A stretch of 45,821 nucleotides of DNA, taken from IMG/VR virus record IMGVR_UViG_2695420343_000003; one strand, given 5' to 3'. The translations under genes were made by a program, and so were the position numbers. The notes beneath the pieces are model-generated. The model was not told the DNA's origin and ran no database searches. It saw only the letters and a list, made by a program, of their open reading frames with translations. Shown piece after piece: positions 13,806 through 43,654 of this stretch (within the stretch, counting starts at the first letter, position 1; the number at the start of each line of letters is the position of its first letter). This DNA is from a virus. Its lineage: Duplodnaviria; Heunggongvirae; Uroviricota; Caudoviricetes.

Positions 13806-14846
13806 CTAGGAGGCTTTGATTATATTAAGCAAATGTTTTCCAATCGTTTCAGACATCTTCGGAGGGACCGCATTTCCTATTTGACGAGCCCGAGATTGCA
13901 AAGAACCAATAAATTTATAATCCAAAGGAAATGTTTGTAGACACGCTGCTTCACGAACCGATATTGCTCGATTTTGTGTTGGATGTCCAAAACGTCCATT
14001 TGAATAGCTAATACAACGAGTTGTTAGTCCGCTGGCTGGTTTGTCCCAACTCAAACGTCCATATACGTCTGTATGCCCTTTATGGTTACGATGGCATTCT
14101 AAAATCAATTCATCTGGCCAAAATTCTCGACTTCCACCTTCAGGAGTGCATTTTATTCTACGTAAATTAAGCTCTGATAAGCGTGCAGCTTCATGATCAG
14201 GAATACTATTATGCTTTTCTCCTGCTTCTATCTTCGGTAAATTAGCGATCCAGTCCTTTACTGTTGAATAGGGAGTATTTCCAACCCCATGTGTAGGAGA
14301 AGGCAATGCGACATAAAAATCCTTGGATGCAATGAGCACTAATCTTTCTCGCGTCTGTGGTACACCGTACCACGCAGCTGGCATTACTTTATAATCTACA
14401 CTATATCCCTTTGATGAAAGCATTTCTAAAAACATCATGAATGTTCCTTCATTTTTGTTAAACTTTTGCATTCCTGGCACGTTTTCAACAAAAATAAAAT
14501 CAGGCATATAATGCTCTACAAAACGACTGAATTCCTTTAATAGATCTAATCGTGGATCATCATTTTTTTTATTTGAGTTTTGCTTAGAGTACGGTTGACA
14601 AGGCGCACATCCTGAAAAAAGAATGTAATCATTACGATGTTTTTTTACTAACTTGTTTATGGCATTGTTGTCGATTAACCTAATGTCCGAGTTAATAAAA
14701 GCAGCTTGCGGGAAATTTGCACGAAATGAACTGGCTGCATCAACGTCGAAATCGAGGCCAAAAACAATATCCATTCCAGCTTGATGGAAACCTTGGCTGG
14801 TTCCACCACAACCGGAAAAGAAGTCAAACACTTTGATTTTTTTCAT
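13806..14846 (-). CDS. DNA (cytosine-5)-methyltransferase (Dcm-like)
   Basis: C5-MTase motifs: I FDFFSGCGG, IV GCAPCQPYS (catalytic Cys), VI FVENVPGM, VIII QTRERLVLIA, X GNAVPP; AT-rich; 23 bp downstream of the ATPase gene on the same strand. Confidence 0.9.
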   Translation of the reverse strand: MKKIKVFDFFSGCGGTSQGFHQAGMDIVFGLDFDVDAASSFRANFPQAAFINSDIRLIDNNAINKLVKKHRNDYILFSGCAPCQPYSKQNSNKKNDDPRLDLLKEFSRFVEHYMPDFIFVENVPGMQKFNKNEGTFMMFLEMLSSKGYSVDYKVMPAAWYGVPQTRERLVLIASKDFYVALPSPTHGVGNTPYSTVKDWIANLPKIEAGEKHNSIPDHEAARLSELNLRRIKCTPEGGSREFWPDELILECHRNHKGHTDVYGRLSWDKPASGLTTRCISYSNGRFGHPTQNRAISVREAACLQTFPLDYKFIGSLQSRARQIGNAVPPKMSETIGKHLLNIIKAS

Positions 14847-14869
14847 TTTTCCCTCTGCATCCAGAATCA

Positions 14870-16699
14870 CTATCTAATGATACCACGGTCAAGAGCCTGA
14901 GTAATTATTTTTCTTATTTTTATAAATTCAGGCAATTCATTTTTAAGTCTTGCGGTCATCATTTGTTGGAGGCAAAAAATTTCCTCTGCATTTACTTCTT
15001 CTTTATCATACAGGTGTTGCGCTAATAATCTTATTTGATTCTTATACAGCTCTGGATCATTAGAACTCCAGGTCTGTGAATCAATTATTTCTTTTTCACT
15101 TGGCGTAATTGCCTTTTCAATGAGTAATTGTTCGGGAGTATCAAATGGTAAATACTGCACTTTATTGAATGCATACTCAAGCACTTGCCTTTTGAGTCTA
15201 TTAGATTCTTGTTCATTTTTTTTGCCATTACTACCACTGGCATTGATAATTAACTCGCAACCATAATATTTGCACATTGTATTAACTAAATCAGCATCAG
15301 CAATTTCACTAATTCTTACTGGTTTTATTTTTTTGTTTTTATCACCATCAAGTAAAAACAAAATATCATTGCGTTCTACCACAGCGTAACTGGGAAGATG
15401 CTTGCTTAAAATTGTCTCCGAACCACCTGGTATATAACTTACACTAAATGATAAACTTAATCTTTCATAATTTTTAATCGCTTTATCTATAATTGCTTTA
15501 GCTAATTTATCTTCTACAATTATTGTTTTCTTGTTAATATCATGCCCTAGCTCTATAAAAGCTTCATCCGGTGCTATATTTTGAACTATTTTAGCTGTTT
15601 CACTCTCTTCATCAAAAACAAATAATTTAATAGCATCTTTGGGAAGAGTGTTCACAATAACAGGAGAATGGGTTGATATTACCACTTGATGTTTTTTCTG
15701 CTCAACAATAGAGTACAGAACATCCATCATCCTTTTCTGTGCACCAGGGTGAAGTGAAACTTCTGGTTCGTCAAGAAGAATTAATGAATTAGGTTTGGCC
15801 GAATAAATATTGAGTATTAGTGAAACTATTGCAAATTCACCACTTCCAGCAAAAGCTTCTGTATAGTTCAACTTATCAGTTGAAAGTAAAGCGGTTCCTC
15901 CTCTGGTTCCAAATAACCGATGCTCAAGAAATTTAATGACTTTATATTTTTTTCCTAATATAAATGAGACGTGCTCAACTAGTTCTGGCGCCAAGGTTAT
16001 ATTTTTAACAATGGTTTCCGTCCCCCAAAGTCTTAAATTATTTAGCTTTTCATCAAAAGCTTTCTTTATATATTTAGATTTGCTTCTGATATAGTCTTGC
16101 TTTGTAATTAATACACCACTCTTCTTCTTTCTTAATTTAAAATCAGAGTGATACATACATCTATCAAATGCACTTATTTCCGATCTGAAATCTAGGAAAA
16201 CCAATCCCTTCTTGATTTTTTTCCATCTGGTTGCATTACTATTAGCACCCAGATCATCCGAAATACTCTCCATGTTATCACCAACAGATGGTCGACTTGT
16301 TTCCCAATAATCGATTGTTTTCTTGGTAGCATTGATACGCGCTTGGAGTATTTCAACTAAACGGCCATCAGCATTTTTATATCCATATATATATCTAGGC
16401 TTAAGAGAACTGCCATCAGCAAGTTTTAGGTCAGGAAACTCATCTGTTTCAGTTGTGAACCAATAACGAGTTATATTTTTACCATGTGGGCAACCAAATA
16501 GCGCTTTGATAACAGAACTTTTATTAGTTCCATTTTTTCCTACTAAAGCCGTTATAGGGAACTGAAAATCGATCCTTGCATTCTGCTCTATATTTTTAAA
16601 GTATGGAAAACGGATATGTTGTATGAATGGTTCAAATTCACCGTTTTTTAACGCGCACTGGAGTGTTCGAATTTTGCTCTTGTATGCGGAAGTGCTCAT
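14870..16699 (-). CDS. OLD-family ATP-dependent nuclease (ABC-type ATPase + Toprim-like domain)
   Basis: Walker A LVGKNGTNKSS, signature-like AGSGEF, Walker B LILLDEPEVSLHP, H-loop ISTHSP; C-terminal Toprim-like motifs TIIVEDK and FLLDGDKN; very AT-rich. Confidence 0.8.
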   Translation of the reverse strand: MSTSAYKSKIRTLQCALKNGEFEPFIQHIRFPYFKNIEQNARIDFQFPITALVGKNGTNKSSVIKALFGCPHGKNITRYWFTTETDEFPDLKLADGSSLKPRYIYGYKNADGRLVEILQARINATKKTIDYWETSRPSVGDNMESISDDLGANSNATRWKKIKKGLVFLDFRSEISAFDRCMYHSDFKLRKKKSGVLITKQDYIRSKSKYIKKAFDEKLNNLRLWGTETIVKNITLAPELVEHVSFILGKKYKVIKFLEHRLFGTRGGTALLSTDKLNYTEAFAGSGEFAIVSLILNIYSAKPNSLILLDEPEVSLHPGAQKRMMDVLYSIVEQKKHQVVISTHSPVIVNTLPKDAIKLFVFDEESETAKIVQNIAPDEAFIELGHDINKKTIIVEDKLAKAIIDKAIKNYERLSLSFSVSYIPGGSETILSKHLPSYAVVERNDILFLLDGDKNKKIKPVRISEIADADLVNTMCKYYGCELIINASGSNGKKNEQESNRLKRQVLEYAFNKVQYLPFDTPEQLLIEKAITPSEKEIIDSQTWSSNDPELYKNQIRLLAQHLYDKEEVNAEEIFCLQQMMTARLKNELPEFIKIRKIITQALDRGIIR

Positions 16700-18158: not shown

Positions 18159-18448
18159 TGGTGGATTTACGTAAAGCGGCGCAGGGGCAGATGTGCACCG
18201 TCAGAATTCCTGGCTACTGCAATCACAATCCCGAAACATCTGTGCTGGCGCATTACAGGCTGGCGGGGACGTGCGGAACAGCGACAAAACCACACGATAT
18301 GCAGGCAGCGATTGCCTGCAGCTCATGCCACGATTTAATCGACGGGCGGGTAAAAACCAGCGATTACACCAAAGAAGAATTACGCCTGATGCATGCAGAA
18401 GGTGTTTTTCGCACACAAGAAATCTGGAGAAAGGAAGGTTATTTATGA
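18158..18448 (+). CDS. YbcO-like putative nuclease (DUF1364)
   Basis: 96 aa; MVDLRKAAQGQMCTVRIPGYCNHNPETSVLAHYRLAGTCGTATKPHD…ACSSCHD resembles recalled DLP12 YbcO. Confidence 0.7.
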   Translation: MVDLRKAAQGQMCTVRIPGYCNHNPETSVLAHYRLAGTCGTATKPHDMQAAIACSSCHDLIDGRVKTSDYTKEELRLMHAEGVFRTQEIWRKEGYL

Positions 18449-18987
18449 TTTACCCAACAAATACAGGCAAAAGCGGGGAACACCTTCGTCTCACCACGCT
18501 GGAAAGTGTCTGGATTCAGGGAAAACTGCGCATGTGGGGGCGCTGGTCGTATATTGGCGGCGGTAAGACGGGAAATATGTTTAACCAGTTGCTGGCATCC
18601 AAAAAATTGACGAAAACAGCCGTCAACGAAGCCCTGCGCAGGATGAAAAAAGCAGGTCTGGACAAACCTGAACTTGAGGCTTTTTTGCGGGATATGATCA
18701 ACGGCAAGCAAAAAAGCTGGCTGGTGCATTGTACTGATGCAGAGGCGTTATGTATTGATAGAGTCATAAGTGAGGTGCTGGCAGAGCATCCTGGATTGAT
18801 TAGTGTCCTCCGGCAACGGTATGAAGGGCGGGGGATGACTAAGCGCAAAATGGCTGAATTGCTAAATGATGTACATCCTGAGTGGTGTTTTAGCACATGC
18901 GAAAAGCGAATTGCTAATTGGTTGGCTGTTGCTGAGTATGCCCTATATATTCCCATGCGAGAATCATTTGCTCAAAAAATAGCTTGA
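18445..18987 (+). CDS. Putative late-gene antiterminator (Q-like)
   Basis: 180 aa, last gene before the lysis region; TTATGA overlap with the YbcO-like gene; call is positional, not motif-based. Confidence 0.4.
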   Translation: MIYPTNTGKSGEHLRLTTLESVWIQGKLRMWGRWSYIGGGKTGNMFNQLLASKKLTKTAVNEALRRMKKAGLDKPELEAFLRDMINGKQKSWLVHCTDAEALCIDRVISEVLAEHPGLISVLRQRYEGRGMTKRKMAELLNDVHPEWCFSTCEKRIANWLAVAEYALYIPMRESFAQKIA

Positions 18988-33235: not shown

Positions 33236-33432
33236 CGTTTAACAGCCTGCCGGACGGGCTGTCCTACCTTCTCAATCCGGTTGACGCCGGGTTAATTCCT
33301 TATACAGCACTTAAAGATGGCTCTGTCGATTTGTACGACATTGCTCTCTTGAATGACCATCTGGCGGTAAAAGCGGATAACCAGCGGCGCATTGAGAAAT
33401 GGAGAGAGGATAATGAACGCCGAGACTATTAA
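33184..33432 (+). other. Candidate -1 programmed frameshift extension of tail chaperone (GT-like product)
   Basis: Heptamer t ttt ttg in zero frame; -1 frame open from 33184 to TAA at 33430..33432 (…AYTPYQHDAEPATGLTFNSLPDGLSYLLNPVDAGLIPYTALKDGSVDLYDIALLNDHLAVK…). Confidence 0.5.
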
Positions 33433-35401
33433 AGATTTCCTTGTCTCGCTTGGCTTCAGTGTGGATGATGCAGGAGCGAAAAAATTCGGTTCTGTCCTCG
33501 CCGGTACAACTGCAAATGTCATCAAAATGGGGCTGGCCGTCGAAGGAGCGGCGCTGTCCGTGGTGGCCTTCACGGCTAAGATCGCCTCCGGCCTGGATAA
33601 TCTTTACTGGGCGTCACAGCGCACCGGCGCGACAGTCCAGGGAATTCAGTCTATTGGCTATGCGGTTTCGCAGGTTGGCGGCAGCGTGGACGCTGCGCGA
33701 TCTTCTCTGGAAAACCTCTCCCGGTTTATTCGTAATAATCCCGGGGCGGAGGGATTTCTGAATCGTCTGGGGGTACAGACACGGGATGCCAGCGGTAACA
33801 TGCGTGACATGGCCGCTATTTTTACAGGGGTAGGCCAGAAGCTCAGCGACATGCCGTATTACCGTGCTAACCAGTATGCGCAGATGCTGGGCATTGACGA
33901 AAATACCCTGTTGGCTATGCGTCGCGGTGTGGGTGGCTTCTCCGGGCAGTACAGCGCAATGGCGAAAGCTATCGGCTTCAATGCTGACGAGGCGGCCAGA
34001 AGCTCCAACAAATTTATGACCTCCCTGCGTGAGTTTGGCGCGATGGCAGGCATGGCCCGTGACAAAATCGGCTCTAATCTTGCGGGTGGGCTTGCGGGTT
34101 CGCTGGACACACTGCGCCGCCATATCCTGGACAACTTCCCGCGTATCGAGCAGACCCTGACGAAAGCCATAAAAGGCATTCTGGCGCTCGGGGATATTAT
34201 CGGGCGGCTGTTCTTCAGACTGATTGAGGGGACATCAGGCCTCATCACCTGGTGGCAATCGCTGGATAAGCAAACGCGGGAGTTGATCTCGCTGTTTGGC
34301 GCACTGACGATTGCGCTGCGCATTCTGAACAGTACGTTCTGGATGTCGCCGATTGGCCTCATTACCGCGCTGGCGGCGGGGATTGCCCTCCTGTGGGAGG
34401 ACTATCAGACCTGGAAGGAAGGCGGCGACAGCCTGATTGACTGGGGCAAGTGGAAACCGGAGGTTGATGCCGCGCTGAAGATGGTTCGTGACCTTAAAAC
34501 GACCGTTAACGACCTGGTGAAAGCGCTGGCGAAACTGCTCAATATTGACCCCAAATCATGGTCCCTGAAGTGGGATTTCAGCAACTTCATCGACCAGATG
34601 GGCGAATTCAGCAAAATGCTGAACATGATCGCCGACCTGCTCAACGCTATCAAAGATGGCCGCTGGGCTGATGCCGTCAGCATCGGCAAACAGATACTTA
34701 ATCAGGGCAGCGAAAATCCGTCAGCGATGCCGATGGTTACAGACAGCGCTAACAGTACTGCCGACTGGATTAAAGAGCACTGGGGATTTGATCCCCGCAG
34801 TGTGGGCCGGACGGTACGCGGCTGGTTTGGTGATGATGAGCCGGAACAACATGCACAGGCTACGAAACGAGGAGAACGGAATAACAATCCGGGAAACCTT
34901 AATTTTGCTGGTCAGGCAGGGGCTTCTCTTGAACGCCCGGGCGGGCGATTTGCCAGATTTGAAACTGCCTTTGATGGATTACGGGCTCTTGCTCGTCAGT
35001 TAATGCTGTACGCCGGACGGGGAATAAACAGTGTGGAGAAAATTATCTCTACCTGGGCACCTGCGTCTGATAATAACAACACAACTGCGTATATCAGGGC
35101 TGTATCGCAACGACTGGGAGTGGATCCCCGGGCTGCCCTGAATATGAGCGATCCGCAAACCATGTCAGCATTGATGAGCAGCATTATCCAGCATGAGAAT
35201 GGAAGAAATATCTATTCTCGGGAGCTGATTAATAAGGCTGCCGTGGCGGGAATTAGTGGCAAAGTGACAGAGGTTAACCAGCAAAATACCTACCACATTT
35301 ACGGTGGCGGAGATCCGCACGCTGTCGGTAATGAGGTTGCACGTCGGCAACAGTCTGCAAATGCTCAGGTCATGCGAAGTAATCAGGTGAGGGTGGGTTA
35401 G
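33413..35401 (+). CDS. Tail tape measure protein
   Basis: ~662 aa from ATG with GGAGAGAGG RBS; Gly/Ala-rich helical regions; position after chaperone frameshift. Confidence 0.8.
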   Translation: MNAETIKDFLVSLGFSVDDAGAKKFGSVLAGTTANVIKMGLAVEGAALSVVAFTAKIASGLDNLYWASQRTGATVQGIQSIGYAVSQVGGSVDAARSSLENLSRFIRNNPGAEGFLNRLGVQTRDASGNMRDMAAIFTGVGQKLSDMPYYRANQYAQMLGIDENTLLAMRRGVGGFSGQYSAMAKAIGFNADEAARSSNKFMTSLREFGAMAGMARDKIGSNLAGGLAGSLDTLRRHILDNFPRIEQTLTKAIKGILALGDIIGRLFFRLIEGTSGLITWWQSLDKQTRELISLFGALTIALRILNSTFWMSPIGLITALAAGIALLWEDYQTWKEGGDSLIDWGKWKPEVDAALKMVRDLKTTVNDLVKALAKLLNIDPKSWSLKWDFSNFIDQMGEFSKMLNMIADLLNAIKDGRWADAVSIGKQILNQGSENPSAMPMVTDSANSTADWIKEHWGFDPRSVGRTVRGWFGDDEPEQHAQATKRGERNNNPGNLNFAGQAGASLERPGGRFARFETAFDGLRALARQLMLYAGRGINSVEKIISTWAPASDNNNTTAYIRAVSQRLGVDPRAALNMSDPQTMSALMSSIIQHENGRNIYSRELINKAAVAGISGKVTEVNQQNTYHIYGGGDPHAVGNEVARRQQSANAQVMRSNQVRVG

Positions 35402-36292: not shown

Positions 36293-37357
36293 ATGTCACA
36301 GAACTGGATGAGACATTTCGAGCTGCAGCTTGTGGACGAGAACGGTCAGGGAATTGAGCTAAGTGATTTTAAAGTTACCTTTACGATCGACTGGTTCAAC
36401 ATCAGCAGTGCATCCCGGGTAGGGACTATCAAAATTTATAACCTCTCGGCAGATACTGTGAACCGAATCACCGGACAGGAGTTTTCGAAAGTGCGTCTGA
36501 TTGCGGGTTACGACGGTATCGCGCCGGAGGTGTCGGCAAGCGACGTCGGGACAGTGCGGGAAGTTGACGCGGCGGACGTGGGCCAGAGTGATGGCCGCAA
36601 CTACGGACTGATTTTCAGCGGTGAAATTCGCTACTCGGTCACAGGAAAAGACAGTCCGGTTGATACCTACGTCCTGATTCAGGCAGCAGATACTGATCTG
36701 GCTTTTGCTACCAGTATAACCTCACAGACGCTGGCTGCCGGTTACACGGTCGCTAATGTGAACCGTGCGCTGATGAAAGACTTCGAAGCCAAAGGCGCGA
36801 CCGAAGGCCTGACGCCTGAAATGCCTGCTACTGTATTCCCCCGGGGGCGGGTACTCTTTGGCATGACGCGGCATCTAATGGATAACGTAGCCGGACAATG
36901 TGGCGCAACATGGCAATTCGTGGACGGTCAGCGCCAGATGGTGGCGAATAACGAATATGTTCACGAAGCGATTGTGCTCAACAGCGCTACCGGGCTTATT
37001 GGAATGCCGCAGCAGACTATCGGTAACGGCGTAAACGTCCGCGCGCTTATTAATCCGAACATCCGGGTTAACGGGCTCATTCAGCTGGATCAGGCTTCCG
37101 TCTATCGTACCGCGTTGTCGAACAACGATATTGCGATGGCTGGTGGTCAGATCACCGACCAGAACACGGACGGAAATATCACGCTCAGCGGCACCACATC
37201 GCAGCCTGCCAGCATCGCAACGGATGGCGTTTATATTGTGCGCGGGATTATGTACACTGGCGACACAAGAGGCCAGGCCTGGTACATGGATATGATGTGC
37301 GAAGCGCGCGGTGCGCAGGATATGCCATCCAGCACTGCTTTGCAGAGAGGATTATAG
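36293..37357 (+). CDS. Tail/baseplate hub-like protein
   Basis: 354 aa between TMP-distal genes and baseplate genes. Confidence 0.5.
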   Translation: MSQNWMRHFELQLVDENGQGIELSDFKVTFTIDWFNISSASRVGTIKIYNLSADTVNRITGQEFSKVRLIAGYDGIAPEVSASDVGTVREVDAADVGQSDGRNYGLIFSGEIRYSVTGKDSPVDTYVLIQAADTDLAFATSITSQTLAAGYTVANVNRALMKDFEAKGATEGLTPEMPATVFPRGRVLFGMTRHLMDNVAGQCGATWQFVDGQRQMVANNEYVHEAIVLNSATGLIGMPQQTIGNGVNVRALINPNIRVNGLIQLDQASVYRTALSNNDIAMAGGQITDQNTDGNITLSGTTSQPASIATDGVYIVRGIMYTGDTRGQAWYMDMMCEARGAQDMPSSTALQRGL

Positions 37358-37359
37358 AA

Positions 37360-37710
37360 ATGAAACGATGGATATTTTCATTGCTGGCGTTAGTGTCTGT
37401 TGGTGTAAGTGCAAACACCATAACGATGCAATGCGGTAACTTTCGTATGGATGCGATCCCTGACTCATTATTTAAAATCAATGGCGAAACAGTAACGTCC
37501 CAAAAAGTAAAAATGTTGGGTAAAGACGGTACAGGCATGCAGATCAAAATGGGGCTGATGCCTGCCAAAGATGGCCACAATTATGGGTTCGAGTATATCC
37601 ATCTACCAGGCACCGAAACGCGATTCCTGAGCGTCCAGCTTCTGCAAAACAGCATGGATGCGCCGAAAATCATCGGATCATTCCCTTGTAAAAAAGTGGC
37701 TGGGCGATGA
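37360..37710 (+). CDS. Secreted small protein (signal peptide), moron
   Basis: ATG 2 nt after upstream stop, AGAGAGGA RBS; MKRWIFSLLALVSVGVSA signal peptide; followed by AT-rich intergenic region. Confidence 0.5.
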   Translation: MKRWIFSLLALVSVGVSANTITMQCGNFRMDAIPDSLFKINGETVTSQKVKMLGKDGTGMQIKMGLMPAKDGHNYGFEYIHLPGTETRFLSVQLLQNSMDAPKIIGSFPCKKVAGR

Positions 37711-37875
37711 TTTTTGACGTCCATAATATTATGGATGAACTGTTGCCAATTGCGCTAATTTTAACAAAATAATACTGGTTAACGCATTTTTTGAACCATC
37801 TGTACACAGTAGTTGTCTATACTTTACCTTAAAGGTAAACTCTGCGCTCCACTGATGTTCACTATGGGAGGGGAT

Positions 37876-38115
37876 ATGAGGAAAATCGTTAACCGTTACT
37901 TAGCCGCTGCCGGTAGTGTTATGGACATTATGCCGACTACAGATTACTGGCAATATGCTGCTTCTGGATCTGATTGTCGGGCAATAAGAAGTGATGTTAA
38001 AGTCATTGCAAGTGACATGAACAGAGTTATCAGGTATGAGTTCAAAACCCCGCAAGCAGGCGGCCGTTCTCAAAAAGCATCAGGAAAACAAAGCGTCGCA
38101 AAAAGCCGTTCCTGA
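37876..38115 (+). CDS. Hypothetical small protein (79 aa)
   Basis: ATG preceded by GGGAGGGG; overlaps the next ORF by 80 nt in another frame. Confidence 0.35.
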   Translation: MRKIVNRYLAAAGSVMDIMPTTDYWQYAASGSDCRAIRSDVKVIASDMNRVIRYEFKTPQAGGRSQKASGKQSVAKSRS

Positions 38116-38608
38116 TTCGGATGGTATCGACGAAGCTATTGATTCCTCGGAATATGATGAGTCTCAGGAAGTAGTGGAAAAGCTGTCTGCAGTTGCCAAC
38201 CTTGATCCTGAGCTAAAATCGAAGTTAACACCTGAACTTCTTGAGAGAGTTTCTAAGAACCCGAAGGTTATTGCCATGTTTCAGCAGGAGTCTTTTCAGG
38301 GACCACTCCCACCTCCTGCTATGCTCTTACAATATAATCAAATATTACCCGGCGGCGCTGAGAGAATTTTCAGGCTAACCGAAAAAGAGCAAGAGCATAG
38401 GCATAAGACGCAAAGTGATGCATTACTTGGTGCGGTTTCACGCGACAAACGTGGGCAATGGATGGGATTTTGCATTGCAATGGTAGTGCTTATAATGGCT
38501 GCGTTTTTTGCTAATCGCGGTAACACTTGGTTCGCAGGTACTCTTGCTACTTTAGATCTCGTAGGATTAACTACAGTGTTTGTTTATGGTAGGAAGAAAC
38601 CTAAATAA
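38036..38608 (+). CDS. Predicted membrane protein (DUF2335-like), moron
   Basis: 190 aa; acidic N-terminal half, conserved-looking segment PLPPPAMLLQYNQILPGGAERIFRL, two C-terminal TM helices; followed by terminator. Confidence 0.5.
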   Translation: MSSKPRKQAAVLKKHQENKASQKAVPDSDGIDEAIDSSEYDESQEVVEKLSAVANLDPELKSKLTPELLERVSKNPKVIAMFQQESFQGPLPPPAMLLQYNQILPGGAERIFRLTEKEQEHRHKTQSDALLGAVSRDKRGQWMGFCIAMVVLIMAAFFANRGNTWFAGTLATLDLVGLTTVFVYGRKKPK

Positions 38609-38623
38609 TCCATACATCCTTTC

Positions 38624-38647
38624 AAACCCGCTTCGGCGGGTTTTTTG
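38624..38647 (+). terminator. Rho-independent terminator closing the tail-embedded moron unit
   Basis: cccgcttcggcggg + TTTTTT. Confidence 0.65.
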
Positions 38648-38665
38648 CTTTCTGGAGCCTACTAA

Positions 38666-39418
38666 ATGGCCGTATCTGACCAGACCCGCAGCGGCGACCT
38701 TGCCGAAACATTCAAATCTGAACGGGAAACAACAAAGAACCAGATCCGTGTCGCCTTGCCTGGCATTATTCAGTCATTCGATCCTGATGCGGTGACGGCA
38801 GTTGTGCAGCCTGCTATCCGTTCGGTTGAAAAGGATAATGACGGCAACCGCATTACCCAAAATTACCCATTGCTGGTGGATGTGCCAGTGGTATTCCCGC
38901 GCGGTGGAGGATGCACGCTAACGTTCCCAGTTAAAGCCGGTGATGAATGTTTGATGATTTTTGCCGATCGTTGTATTGATTTCTGGTGGCAGAACGGCGG
39001 GATACAGGAGCCTGTTGATGACAGAATGCATGATTTATCGGATGCGTTTTGTATTGTCGGTCCCCAGTCGCAGGCTAGGAAGATTAGCGGTATTAATACC
39101 AGTGCCACACAGTTGCGTAGTGACGATGGCAGCACCTATTTTGAGCTTAATCCTGATACCGGGAAAATTAAAATTGTCGCTCCGGGTGGTCTTGATGTGG
39201 TTGCCCCTCTGGCTGATTTTTCTGAGAAAGTAACCATTCATGGCCTGTTAACCTGGATGGGAGGCATGGTGGGGTCTGTTGTTTCTGGTGTGGCTTCAAA
39301 AATCACTGGTGCTGTTGAGTTTTTGGGTAGCGTGAAGGCTAACGGCAAGCCAATCGATGATACGCACACTCATGGTGGTGTTCAGCGCGGTGGAAGCAAT
39401 ACCGACGGAGTAAACTGA
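38666..39418 (+). CDS. Baseplate spike / assembly protein (gpV-like)
   Basis: 250 aa at start of baseplate cluster; Gly-rich C-terminus. Confidence 0.5.
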   Translation: MAVSDQTRSGDLAETFKSERETTKNQIRVALPGIIQSFDPDAVTAVVQPAIRSVEKDNDGNRITQNYPLLVDVPVVFPRGGGCTLTFPVKAGDECLMIFADRCIDFWWQNGGIQEPVDDRMHDLSDAFCIVGPQSQARKISGINTSATQLRSDDGSTYFELNPDTGKIKIVAPGGLDVVAPLADFSEKVTIHGLLTWMGGMVGSVVSGVASKITGAVEFLGSVKANGKPIDDTHTHGGVQRGGSNTDGVN

Positions 39419-43121: not shown

Positions 43122-43586
43122 TCACGCCGCCCTCACGATATAGTTAAATGCGATATTGCGGGGGCGAGCTGATACATAAGCCCACCAGTCATATCTTTGT
43201 GCACCTTTAGAGGATGCATCAAATATCCACTTTTTGCCATTTATGACCCCCAGTTGATTAGAGGTTAAAGCGTCACCAAATCCGTATTGTGTAGAGCCGA
43301 GCGAACTGATATCTCCGGTATCATTATCATCAAAACCGGATACGATAGTCCCTTCCTGAAATGAAAGTAGCGCACGCCCGGTATCAACTTTGCGCCCGTC
43401 GTCCCATCCACGGATAAACTCACCGCGCAAATCGGGAAGACGGAGGGTCGGGTAGACTCTGGCCAGAACAGGATATTGTTCTTTGGTGAACGTAGCTCCG
43501 TTGCACTGTAACCAGCCTGCTGGCGGTGTGGCGGTGGGCCATGGAACCGGTACACCAACAGGCAATGCAGAGCCTTCCCCCAAACC
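43122..43586 (-). other. Silent alternative tail-fibre C-terminal cassette (Sv') in inverted orientation
   Basis: Minus-strand ORF sharing [26 protein letters not shown]…[34 protein letters not shown] with the expressed fibre, then diverging; no in-frame constant N-terminus in this orientation. Confidence 0.6.
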
Positions 43587-43600
43587 AACGTTTATGAAAA
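43575..43600. repeat. Invertase crossover-like site (right), gix/pix-like
   Basis: ttcccccaaaccaacgtttatgaaaa; imperfect dyad with AAACC half-sites; 55 bp upstream of truncated invertase gene. Confidence 0.55.
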
Positions 43601-43654
43601 TGCAGAAATAACGAGCAAATGGCATCATTCCTGCTTTTGTCAGGGAGATCTACC

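Follow-up and report, generated by a model that had tools for sequence, protein, structure and literature searches.

The stretch of DNA analyzed here (the window; 45,821 nucleotides (nt), IMG/VR record IMGVR_UViG_2695420343_000003) is an Escherichia coli prophage whose baseplate hub and membrane-puncturing spike genes enclose a slot for exchangeable cargo. Its cargo is a pair of genes on the + strand, a 79-codon open reading frame (ORF), orf79, and the gene for a 190-residue membrane protein of the DUF2335 family, which together with an AT-rich spacer to their left make up the cassette; ahead of the cassette lies orf116, encoding a 116-residue protein predicted to be exported. Loci of this kind are already known, as morons or prophage hotspots; what is new is the cargo, a very widespread pair of genes not described before. 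The explanation that best accounts for the locus as a whole, and to which we give a modest preference, is that orf116 and a terminator are fixed parts of the slot, that orf79 and DUF2335 constitute an autonomous operon acting as a membrane exclusion, abortive-infection or addiction module, and that orf116 is periplasmic.

The two-gene nature of the cargo is evident from a survey of 160 loci with DUF2335 homologs, 80 each from viral contigs and from genomes of diverse phyla, in which small ORFs were detected by an iterated profile search over the six-frame stop-to-stop segments around the DUF2335 genes, followed by an alignment query. A small ORF immediately precedes, in the same orientation, 125 of the 136 DUF2335 genes for which ≥400 nt of upstream sequence was available, and this holds across phyla. 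When all six frames of 168 sequences were searched, only three of 126 small-ORF matches were not adjacent to a DUF2335 gene, and in the reciprocal test, at five places reached by way of the small protein, DUF2335 was found downstream in all five (as a called PF10097 gene in four and an uncalled ORF in one). The two proteins have also diverged together, the pairwise identities of 89 distinct pairs correlating at r = 0.77, compared with a maximum of 0.07 in 500 permutations. As judged from these sequences, the orf79-type protein and DUF2335 are an obligate two-gene unit across bacteria and phages.

The small partner is encoded in the window at 37876–38115 (+), with a strong Shine-Dalgarno sequence (GGGAGGGG) 4 nt before its ATG. 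The orf79 product matches phrog_26284 over residues 1–52 (E 2e-12) and the iterated family profile built in this analysis (E 7e-17), and belongs to an enterobacterial clade that is a divergent branch of a family whose motif is roughly FLFA.PS...G.aR..D.gGtL..YN.S.T..eAD..Al.sDW.aVG.D...A. The alignment query with this family returned 256 proteins, all named "hypothetical" and without Pfam domains, and an exhaustive profile search returned 4222 cluster representatives (E ≤ 1e-3), 1813 of them at E ≤ 1e-10, those among the matches listed all being of 65–170 residues. No Pfam or NCBIfam model was found for these proteins, which make up an undescribed small-protein family. The structural model of orf79 is a helical hairpin of low confidence (predicted local distance difference test, pLDDT, 65), the fold search with it gave uninformative matches, and no helix-turn-helix or ribbon-helix-helix family was detected in the small protein.

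A direct protein-database search with orf79 returned nothing, because gene callers skip the ORF: PGAP/RefSeq has no coding sequence at its position in any complete E. coli genome inspected (e.g., 21KM1392, where L001 3911–4237 corresponds to window 37711–38036). Orf79-like ORFs also lie just upstream of the DUF2335 genes of Klebsiella phages RAH1 and BUCT711 and Escherichia phage EC.W1-9, all three reached by tblastn with DUF2335, and in the RAH1 and BUCT711 records they are unannotated. The small DUF2335 partner is systematically missed by annotation where it overlaps the downstream gene.

The downstream gene (38036–38608, +) encodes a protein that matches PF10097 over residues 92–141 with 66.6 bits (cut-off 25) and phrog_3996 with E 1e-46. 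The two C-terminal transmembrane helices that had been claimed for it in an earlier note on this DNA are borne out as hydrophobic segments at approximately residues 142–161 and 165–185, and the C-terminal end is GRKKPK. Overall the protein has a polar N-terminal linker, a conserved domain (GPLPPP, LPG.AERIF, EKEQ.HR, RDKRGQW) and a two-helix membrane hairpin. Because basic residues flank the hairpin on both sides, the positive-inside rule would put the N-terminal domain and the C-terminus on the cytoplasmic side, with the hairpin as membrane anchor. The earlier note had held that its proposal of a moron would fail if transcription were confined to the late tail operon and homologs were consistently annotated as structural tail components; no homolog is annotated as structural, and the PHROGs category of the DUF2335 family is "moron".

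The strong ribosome-binding site and the 80-nt overlap of the two ORFs in different frames (38036–38115, +), both described in that note, are present. The overlap spans only the non-conserved basic tail of orf79 (residues 54–79) and the non-conserved N-terminal linker of DUF2335. Among 55 non-redundant loci in which the DUF2335 profile begins near the N-terminus, 43 have no start codon past the stop of the small ORF, so that an overlap, of 8–77 nt, is obligatory there. Within the window, DUF2335 could alternatively start without overlap at an in-frame GTG (38174) that follows AGGAAGTA, and the overlap is for this reason likely, not proven; the ATG at 38036 is favored, as all enterobacterial relatives have a polar, non-conserved N-terminal linker ahead of the conserved core. 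Further IMG/VR contigs carry the cassette, and the six distinct full-length variants compared contain 13 variable sites in all, a number that does not suffice to test the overlap by codon position.

It had been suggested that the overlap might reflect a frameshifted fusion or dual coding. The corresponding reading, in which orf79 and the 190-residue ORF are halves of one protein joined by a frameshift (programmed, or apparent through sequencing error) within a self-contained three-gene moron, we consider very improbable and largely refuted. The ORFs do overlap in different frames, the homologous part of orf79 (residues 1–52) stops where the DUF2335 ORF starts, and at one locus, L075, a small-ORF-like match, though weak, is in frame with DUF2335. 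However, the frame offset between the small ORF and DUF2335 is +1 in most lineages and +2 or 0 in others, which speaks against a conserved frameshift site, and the DUF2335 genes have start codons of their own, as orf79 has its own Shine-Dalgarno sequence. The best 150 of the 4222 small-family representatives are short stand-alone proteins with no fusions among them, and eight longer members contain no DUF2335 or other Pfam domain. A sequencing error is contradicted by the identical arrangement in 16 complete E. coli genomes, in which the cassette has at least 99.6% identity. A programmed-frameshift fusion of the tail chaperone G/GT type would call for a fixed frame, a conserved slip site and fused homologs, and the varying offset and stand-alone proteins do not fit it. 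As for "dual coding", the genes share sequence just as any two overlapping genes do, each through a non-conserved tail.

The setting of the pair was characterized by gathering 80 loci via the spike protein and excising the hub-to-spike interval from each. The conserved left flank is the baseplate hub gene (36293–37357, +; 354 residues; phrog_196 "baseplate hub", E 3e-88) and the conserved right flank the gpV-like spike gene (38666–39418, +; PF18352, E 4e-44, plus an Apex motif). Between them we found at least 20 different fillings, of 694–1876 nt and with a G+C content (GC) of 0.37–0.46. Both flanks are present in 321 of 5426 complete E. coli genomes and the orf79/DUF2335 stretch in 16 of those 321, i.e., in approximately 5% of related prophages; in all 16 the cassette occupies the same position, with flanks that are 93–98% identical. 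E. coli lysogens with the cassette include 21KM1392, BEN2908, and M-17. In the window, GC is 0.38–0.47 over 37300–38600 vs. 0.50–0.58 in the hub gene. The locus shows marks of a moron in the sense of Juhala and Hendrix, namely extra DNA between the same hub and spike genes, a deviating base composition and a terminator of its own (38624–38650), though the last belongs to the slot.

The exchangeable part is 37711–38623 only, with orf116 and the terminator as fixed slot arms. An orf116 homolog is the first slot gene in 17 of 20 fillings, regardless of what comes next; the three fillings that lack it open with another exported protein, either a 158-residue secreted protein or a 241-residue lipoprotein, and an exported protein is encoded directly behind the hub gene in all 20 variants. 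(The lipobox of the 241-residue lipoprotein is LTSC, and the first genes other than orf116 are at L174, L182, L231, and L173.) The left joint of the slot falls within the last codons of orf116 (...GSFPCKKV), beyond which the sequences diverge. At the right border, just ahead of the spike ribosome-binding site, is the intrinsic terminator (38624–38650, +; hairpin 38624–38643 plus T-run), with the sequence AAACCCGC-TTCG-GCGGGTTT, then TTTTGC. This is the clean terminator reported earlier; its RNA fold has −15 kcal/mol (z = −2.6) and it is the only terminator-like site in 36–40 kb. The hairpin and the spike ribosome-binding site are kept in 18 of 20 fillings, the differences being in the loop, in stem length (shorter in window-type variants) and in one G-U wobble. 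As the terminator is common to 18 of 20 fillings, it belongs to the slot; its assignment to the cassette was considered and rejected on the same ground.

The earlier proposal of a self-contained moron in the tail operon is thus upheld with respect to accessory, replaceable cargo of low GC, but not with respect to a single three-gene unit, since orf116 and the terminator are shared with other cargo. Lysogenic conversion or exclusion, which the note named as frequent functions of morons at this position, is a putative role. In L182/L183 this cassette follows the 158-residue gene along with 18 codons left over from the 3′ end of orf116, an arrangement that we interpret as a recombination scar, and the AT-rich spacer has moved together with the cassette into the different slot arrangement of L182. 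Cassettes would be swapped by recombination among related prophages between two homology arms, orf116 and the terminator. Slot variants L217 and L246 have no conserved terminator ahead of the spike gene; they have a GC-rich terminator-like hairpin and T-run directly after the orf116 homolog, and the rest of their slot appears to be opposite-strand coding or non-coding. In a Photorhabdus prophage an orf116 homolog is followed by a 45%-identical DUF2335 pair and then by a 252-residue ORF at the place of the spike gene (judged by position).

Alternative cargo of the slot includes a 192-residue protein with a YafO-family toxin (PF13957, E 4e-17), several pairs of a 243–266-residue TPR-like protein and a 123–142-residue protein (weak HEPN_IX match, E ~0.009), a 176–184-residue multi-pass membrane protein (weak PycTM match, E 9e-4) with a 57-residue acidic protein, and single genes of 170, 121, and 79 residues. 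The matches are weak save that to YafO, and as a whole they suggest a flavor of toxin or defense-like two-gene modules, as in P2/P4 hotspots. It is the presence, in the same slot of other loci, of the YafO pair and of the weakly HEPN-like or PycTM-like modules that leads us to favor membrane exclusion, abortive infection or addiction as the probable role of the orf79/DUF2335 pair. The YafO cargo is located at 519–1515 of the L197 slot (IMG/VR UViG_2778261277_000017), and its 192-residue member, which precedes the toxin and has a faint EAD5 match, is an unusual YafO partner. The second slot gene of L004 (3918–4283; E. coli P4) encodes a 121-residue protein with a signal peptide which by eye has an orf116-like layout, with a cysteine approximately five residues into the mature part in a "KCG" context and another near the C-terminus; it may be a distant paralog of orf116.

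The AT-rich gap with promoter-like hexamers described earlier at 37711–37875 is present, the hexamers being the weak point of that description. This 165-nt spacer (+), the left end of the cassette, has a GC of ~0.38 vs. 0.50–0.57 in the flanking DNA and is a candidate promoter region. Its sole promoter-scan match (TTGCCA-16-CAAAAT, 37743–37770) has 9 of 12 matches, a chance-level result locally, as five promoter-like sites were found in the 4-kb region where 5.1 are expected from shuffles. Across 40 non-identical copies of the module (~16 lineages), a promoter-like site lies no more than 200 nt upstream in 28 (vs. 7.6 expected), and an intrinsic-terminator-like hairpin lies no more than 120 nt downstream in 31 (vs. 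0.8 expected from shuffles).

The near-constant first gene of the slot, orf116 (37360–37710, +), is the 116-residue signal-peptide protein that had been noted between the hub-like and gpV-like genes. Its ATG is 2 nt past the hub stop, without an intervening gap, and is preceded by a GAGG Shine-Dalgarno sequence (within AGAGAGGA); the two genes probably share a transcript. The N-terminal signal-peptide-like segment reads MKRWIFSLLALVSVGVSA/N, with the end of the signal peptide at VSA/NT. All 270 homologs are from Enterobacterales and are hypothetical proteins; the signal peptide is variable and the mature part conserved, with C25 and C110 invariant. Rapid diversification of orf116 was considered and rejected, as most of the variation falls on the signal peptide and the start of the mature part, with the barrel well conserved. 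The predicted structure is a small up-and-down beta-barrel (pLDDT 84, and >90 for most of the barrel) whose first and last strands contain C25 and C110, respectively, an arrangement in which a disulfide could staple the barrel shut.

The fold search with orf116 matched generic small barrels only, and the viral structure library gave no match. Similarity to the MliC/PliC lysozyme inhibitors is at the level of the beta-barrel fold, with no match to the sequence family, and orf116 differs from the Cor/Llp-type exclusion lipoproteins in having no lipobox cysteine at +1, its first cysteine being residue 25 in strand 1. The periplasmic small beta-barrel inhibitors (PliC/MliC lysozyme inhibitors and Brucella PhiA) are analogs of orf116. 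Upstream of the baseplate genes, a 669-residue tape-measure-like protein is encoded at 33392–35401 (+), which the annotation of one relative calls a "lytic transglycosylase". For an exported inhibitor of the orf116 kind, the tail-borne muralytic domain of such a protein would be an obvious target; orf116 would be made with the baseplate proteins, exported and active in the periplasm, possibly directed at the tail tip or the muralytic activity of related superinfecting phages.

It is also conceivable, though in our view improbable, that the genes of the slot serve the lytic cycle of the phage itself, by envelope remodeling, timing of lysis, protection of progeny from adsorption to debris or assistance with injection or assembly, and are transcribed in the late operon only. 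That all of them are on the late-operon strand, and that orf116 is conserved in most relatives and coupled to the hub gene without gap or promoter, fits such a role, whereas the rarity of the cassette among related prophages and its replacement by unrelated cargo do not; an exported protein and an inner-membrane protein are, moreover, unlikely as virion parts, and the pair is abundant in non-phage genomes.

Outside this slot the pair ranges from Enterobacterales to bacteria of the candidate phyla radiation (CPR) and an archaeal metagenome-assembled genome. In 71 diverse genomes, the genes nearest to it on either side gave matches to 163 Pfam families (in 141 proteins), most often to DNA methylase (4), Mrr (3), and integrase, Fic, and HNH (2 each), and type II toxin-antitoxin genes (DUF433/DUF5615) lie near the pair in L251–L253. 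A conserved third gene beside the pair was sought in the 71 genomes and rejected, the neighbors being heterogeneous; without a conserved third partner, the pair would be an autonomous unit. It occupies moron positions in RAH1, between tail tube and tape measure, and in BUCT711, beside the tailspike, and, in a large set of prophage contigs from E. coli and Salmonella, it lies at the contig ends. Many of approximately 30 viral contigs (L042–L073) have a 44%-identical DUF2335 gene at position 31–447, the extreme end of the predicted prophage, and in L042–L044, where upstream sequence is present, the small ORF is present as well. The pair is probably a border moron, close to the attachment site, in another common enterobacterial prophage family.

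Several observations weigh against an exclusion or defense role for the pair. Besides the chance-level promoter match in the spacer, no PADLOC-DB v2 model matched orf116, orf79 or DUF2335 at E ≤ 1, most genomic neighbors of the pair are housekeeping and not defense genes, and the presence of the pair in tiny, minimal CPR genomes could point to a housekeeping membrane role. There is no recognizable DNA-binding fold in the small protein, as far as its low-confidence model goes; orf116 is without a promoter of its own, and may therefore serve the lytic late phase only; and the literature contained no function for DUF2335 or its small partner, searches with PF10097 and the RefSeq accession giving nothing useful. 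The DUF2335 protein likewise has no relatives in NCBIfam or the PDB, and sequence searches of solved structures with all three proteins gave chance-level matches only (e.g., DndE, E 0.09; Dps, E 0.07). A "DUF2335 phospholipase" in two papers on type VI secretion was set aside, as it is almost certainly a slip for DUF2235, and a list of Dickeya mutants names a DUF2335 gene without a mechanism.

Some of these points are shared by a competing explanation, which we regard as somewhat unlikely, in which the pair has no role in exclusion and hitch-hikes in the slot, either as a selfish, toxin-antitoxin-like addiction module or as a general membrane-housekeeping pair. Its very wide phyletic spread, its housekeeping neighbors and the lack of a PADLOC match would all be expected, and tight coupling, overlap and co-divergence are typical of toxin-antitoxin pairs. 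As in type II toxin-antitoxin operons, a small upstream gene overlaps a larger downstream gene, and the two are co-inherited in scattered contexts and on mobile elements; in contrast to those operons, the DUF2335 pair has no match to a toxin or antitoxin family and its small protein has no DNA-binding domain of the antitoxin type. The recurrence of the pair at moron positions of the unrelated phages RAH1, BUCT711, and EC.W1-9, and the toxin or defense-like cargo otherwise carried by the slot, also run counter to this explanation.

If the pair is instead an exclusion, abortive-infection or addiction module, as we prefer, it would act at the inner membrane, with DUF2335 as the membrane effector and the small protein as its partner, be it a regulator, a neutralizer or a sensor, and the two may be translationally coupled through their overlap. 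In the lysogen, a promoter in the AT-rich spacer would drive the pair, and the slot terminator would halt transcription and so insulate the tail genes; during lytic growth, Q-modified polymerase would pass the slot terminator.

Precedents exist for both the position and the proposed function. A moron in the HK97 tail operon encodes gp15, a membrane protein with an exclusion function (Juhala et al. 2000; Cumby et al. 2012; reviewed in PMC3594210); like the present locus, that moron is low-GC extra DNA between late-strand tail genes, is followed by a terminator and has a membrane protein as product, and its function is the exclusion of superinfecting phages. It differs in that the locus described here is a slot with many alleles, of which the first gene and the terminator are fixed, and in that the two-gene cargo is unrelated to gp15/YebO. 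Prophage diversity hotspots are rich in defense systems (10.1101/2021.01.21.427644), and the slot resembles P2 Z/fun and the P2/P4 hotspots (Rousset et al., 10.1101/2021.01.21.427644; iLund4u, 10.1101/2024.10.15.618418) in its conserved flanks, including an upstream baseplate gene, and in its many alternative short cargo modules, some of them toxin or defense-like. Unlike those hotspots, it belongs to the SEN34/vB_EcoM-like family with an E217-type hub, is located between hub and spike and not next to cos, and has no validated system among its cargo.

With respect to the pair itself, the RexA/RexB system of lambda and those of the SieB/Esc type are prophage exclusion pairs that each combine a soluble partner with an inner-membrane protein, SieB and Esc having overlapping coding. 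The orf79/DUF2335 pair is similar in that such partners are encoded together on a prophage, and in its overlapping coding (as for SieB/Esc). It has, however, no sequence or detectable fold similarity to these systems, the protein sizes differ greatly, and it is far more widespread and not confined to phages. A bolder version of the preferred explanation, which we put forward tentatively as a possibility, is that the small protein (as sensor or neutralizer) and DUF2335 form an unrecognized, widespread inner-membrane anti-phage system, that the slot is a new defense hotspot and that orf116 blocks the tail-tip machinery of related phages in the periplasm.

The host element is a Q-dependent temperate myovirus prophage of the SEN34/vB_EcoM-like kind, its kin being Salmonella phage SEN34 and the vB_EcoM-R phages. 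A close relative is integrated between yfhL and yfhH, and its late region runs in the order holin, lysin, terminase, head, sheath/tube, tape measure, baseplate. The hub gene has a match to E217_GP41 of 23.9 bits (E 3e-5), which is under the 27-bit Pfam cut-off. The Q-type late antiterminator gene (18445–18987, +; DUF1133, E 6e-108; Phage_antitermQ, 27.6 bits vs. a cut-off of 26) lies upstream of the holin and lysin genes of the window. At 13806–16699 (−), a 354-residue C5 cytosine methyltransferase (PADLOC MTase_II, E 1e-96) adjoins a 609-residue AAA_15/AAA_21 ATPase whose best PADLOC matches are HEC-04 (E 6e-35), ATPase-Toprim_I-B, and AriA/PtuA/Old-like models; these two genes are probably a second defense-type cargo, in the early region of the same prophage. 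Just past the tail-fiber assembly gene, on the opposite strand, is a 168-residue ORF (43122–43628, −) with no PADLOC match. As a relative has a serine acetyltransferase at the equivalent place, this may be a site for O-antigen-modifying morons.

Taken together, these results make the DUF2335 membrane family one half of a two-gene unit, so that it should always be studied with its partner, and they expose a conserved small gene that standard annotation of E. coli has missed. They also define, in a common family of enterobacterial prophages, a compact multi-allelic slot that runs from the 3′ end of orf116 to a conserved terminator. Slots of this kind have been a productive source of new anti-phage systems, and each cassette here is <2 kb and can be cloned directly. 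If the orf79/DUF2335 pair is indeed a defense or addiction module, it would be, by phyletic breadth, among the more widespread of the small systems.

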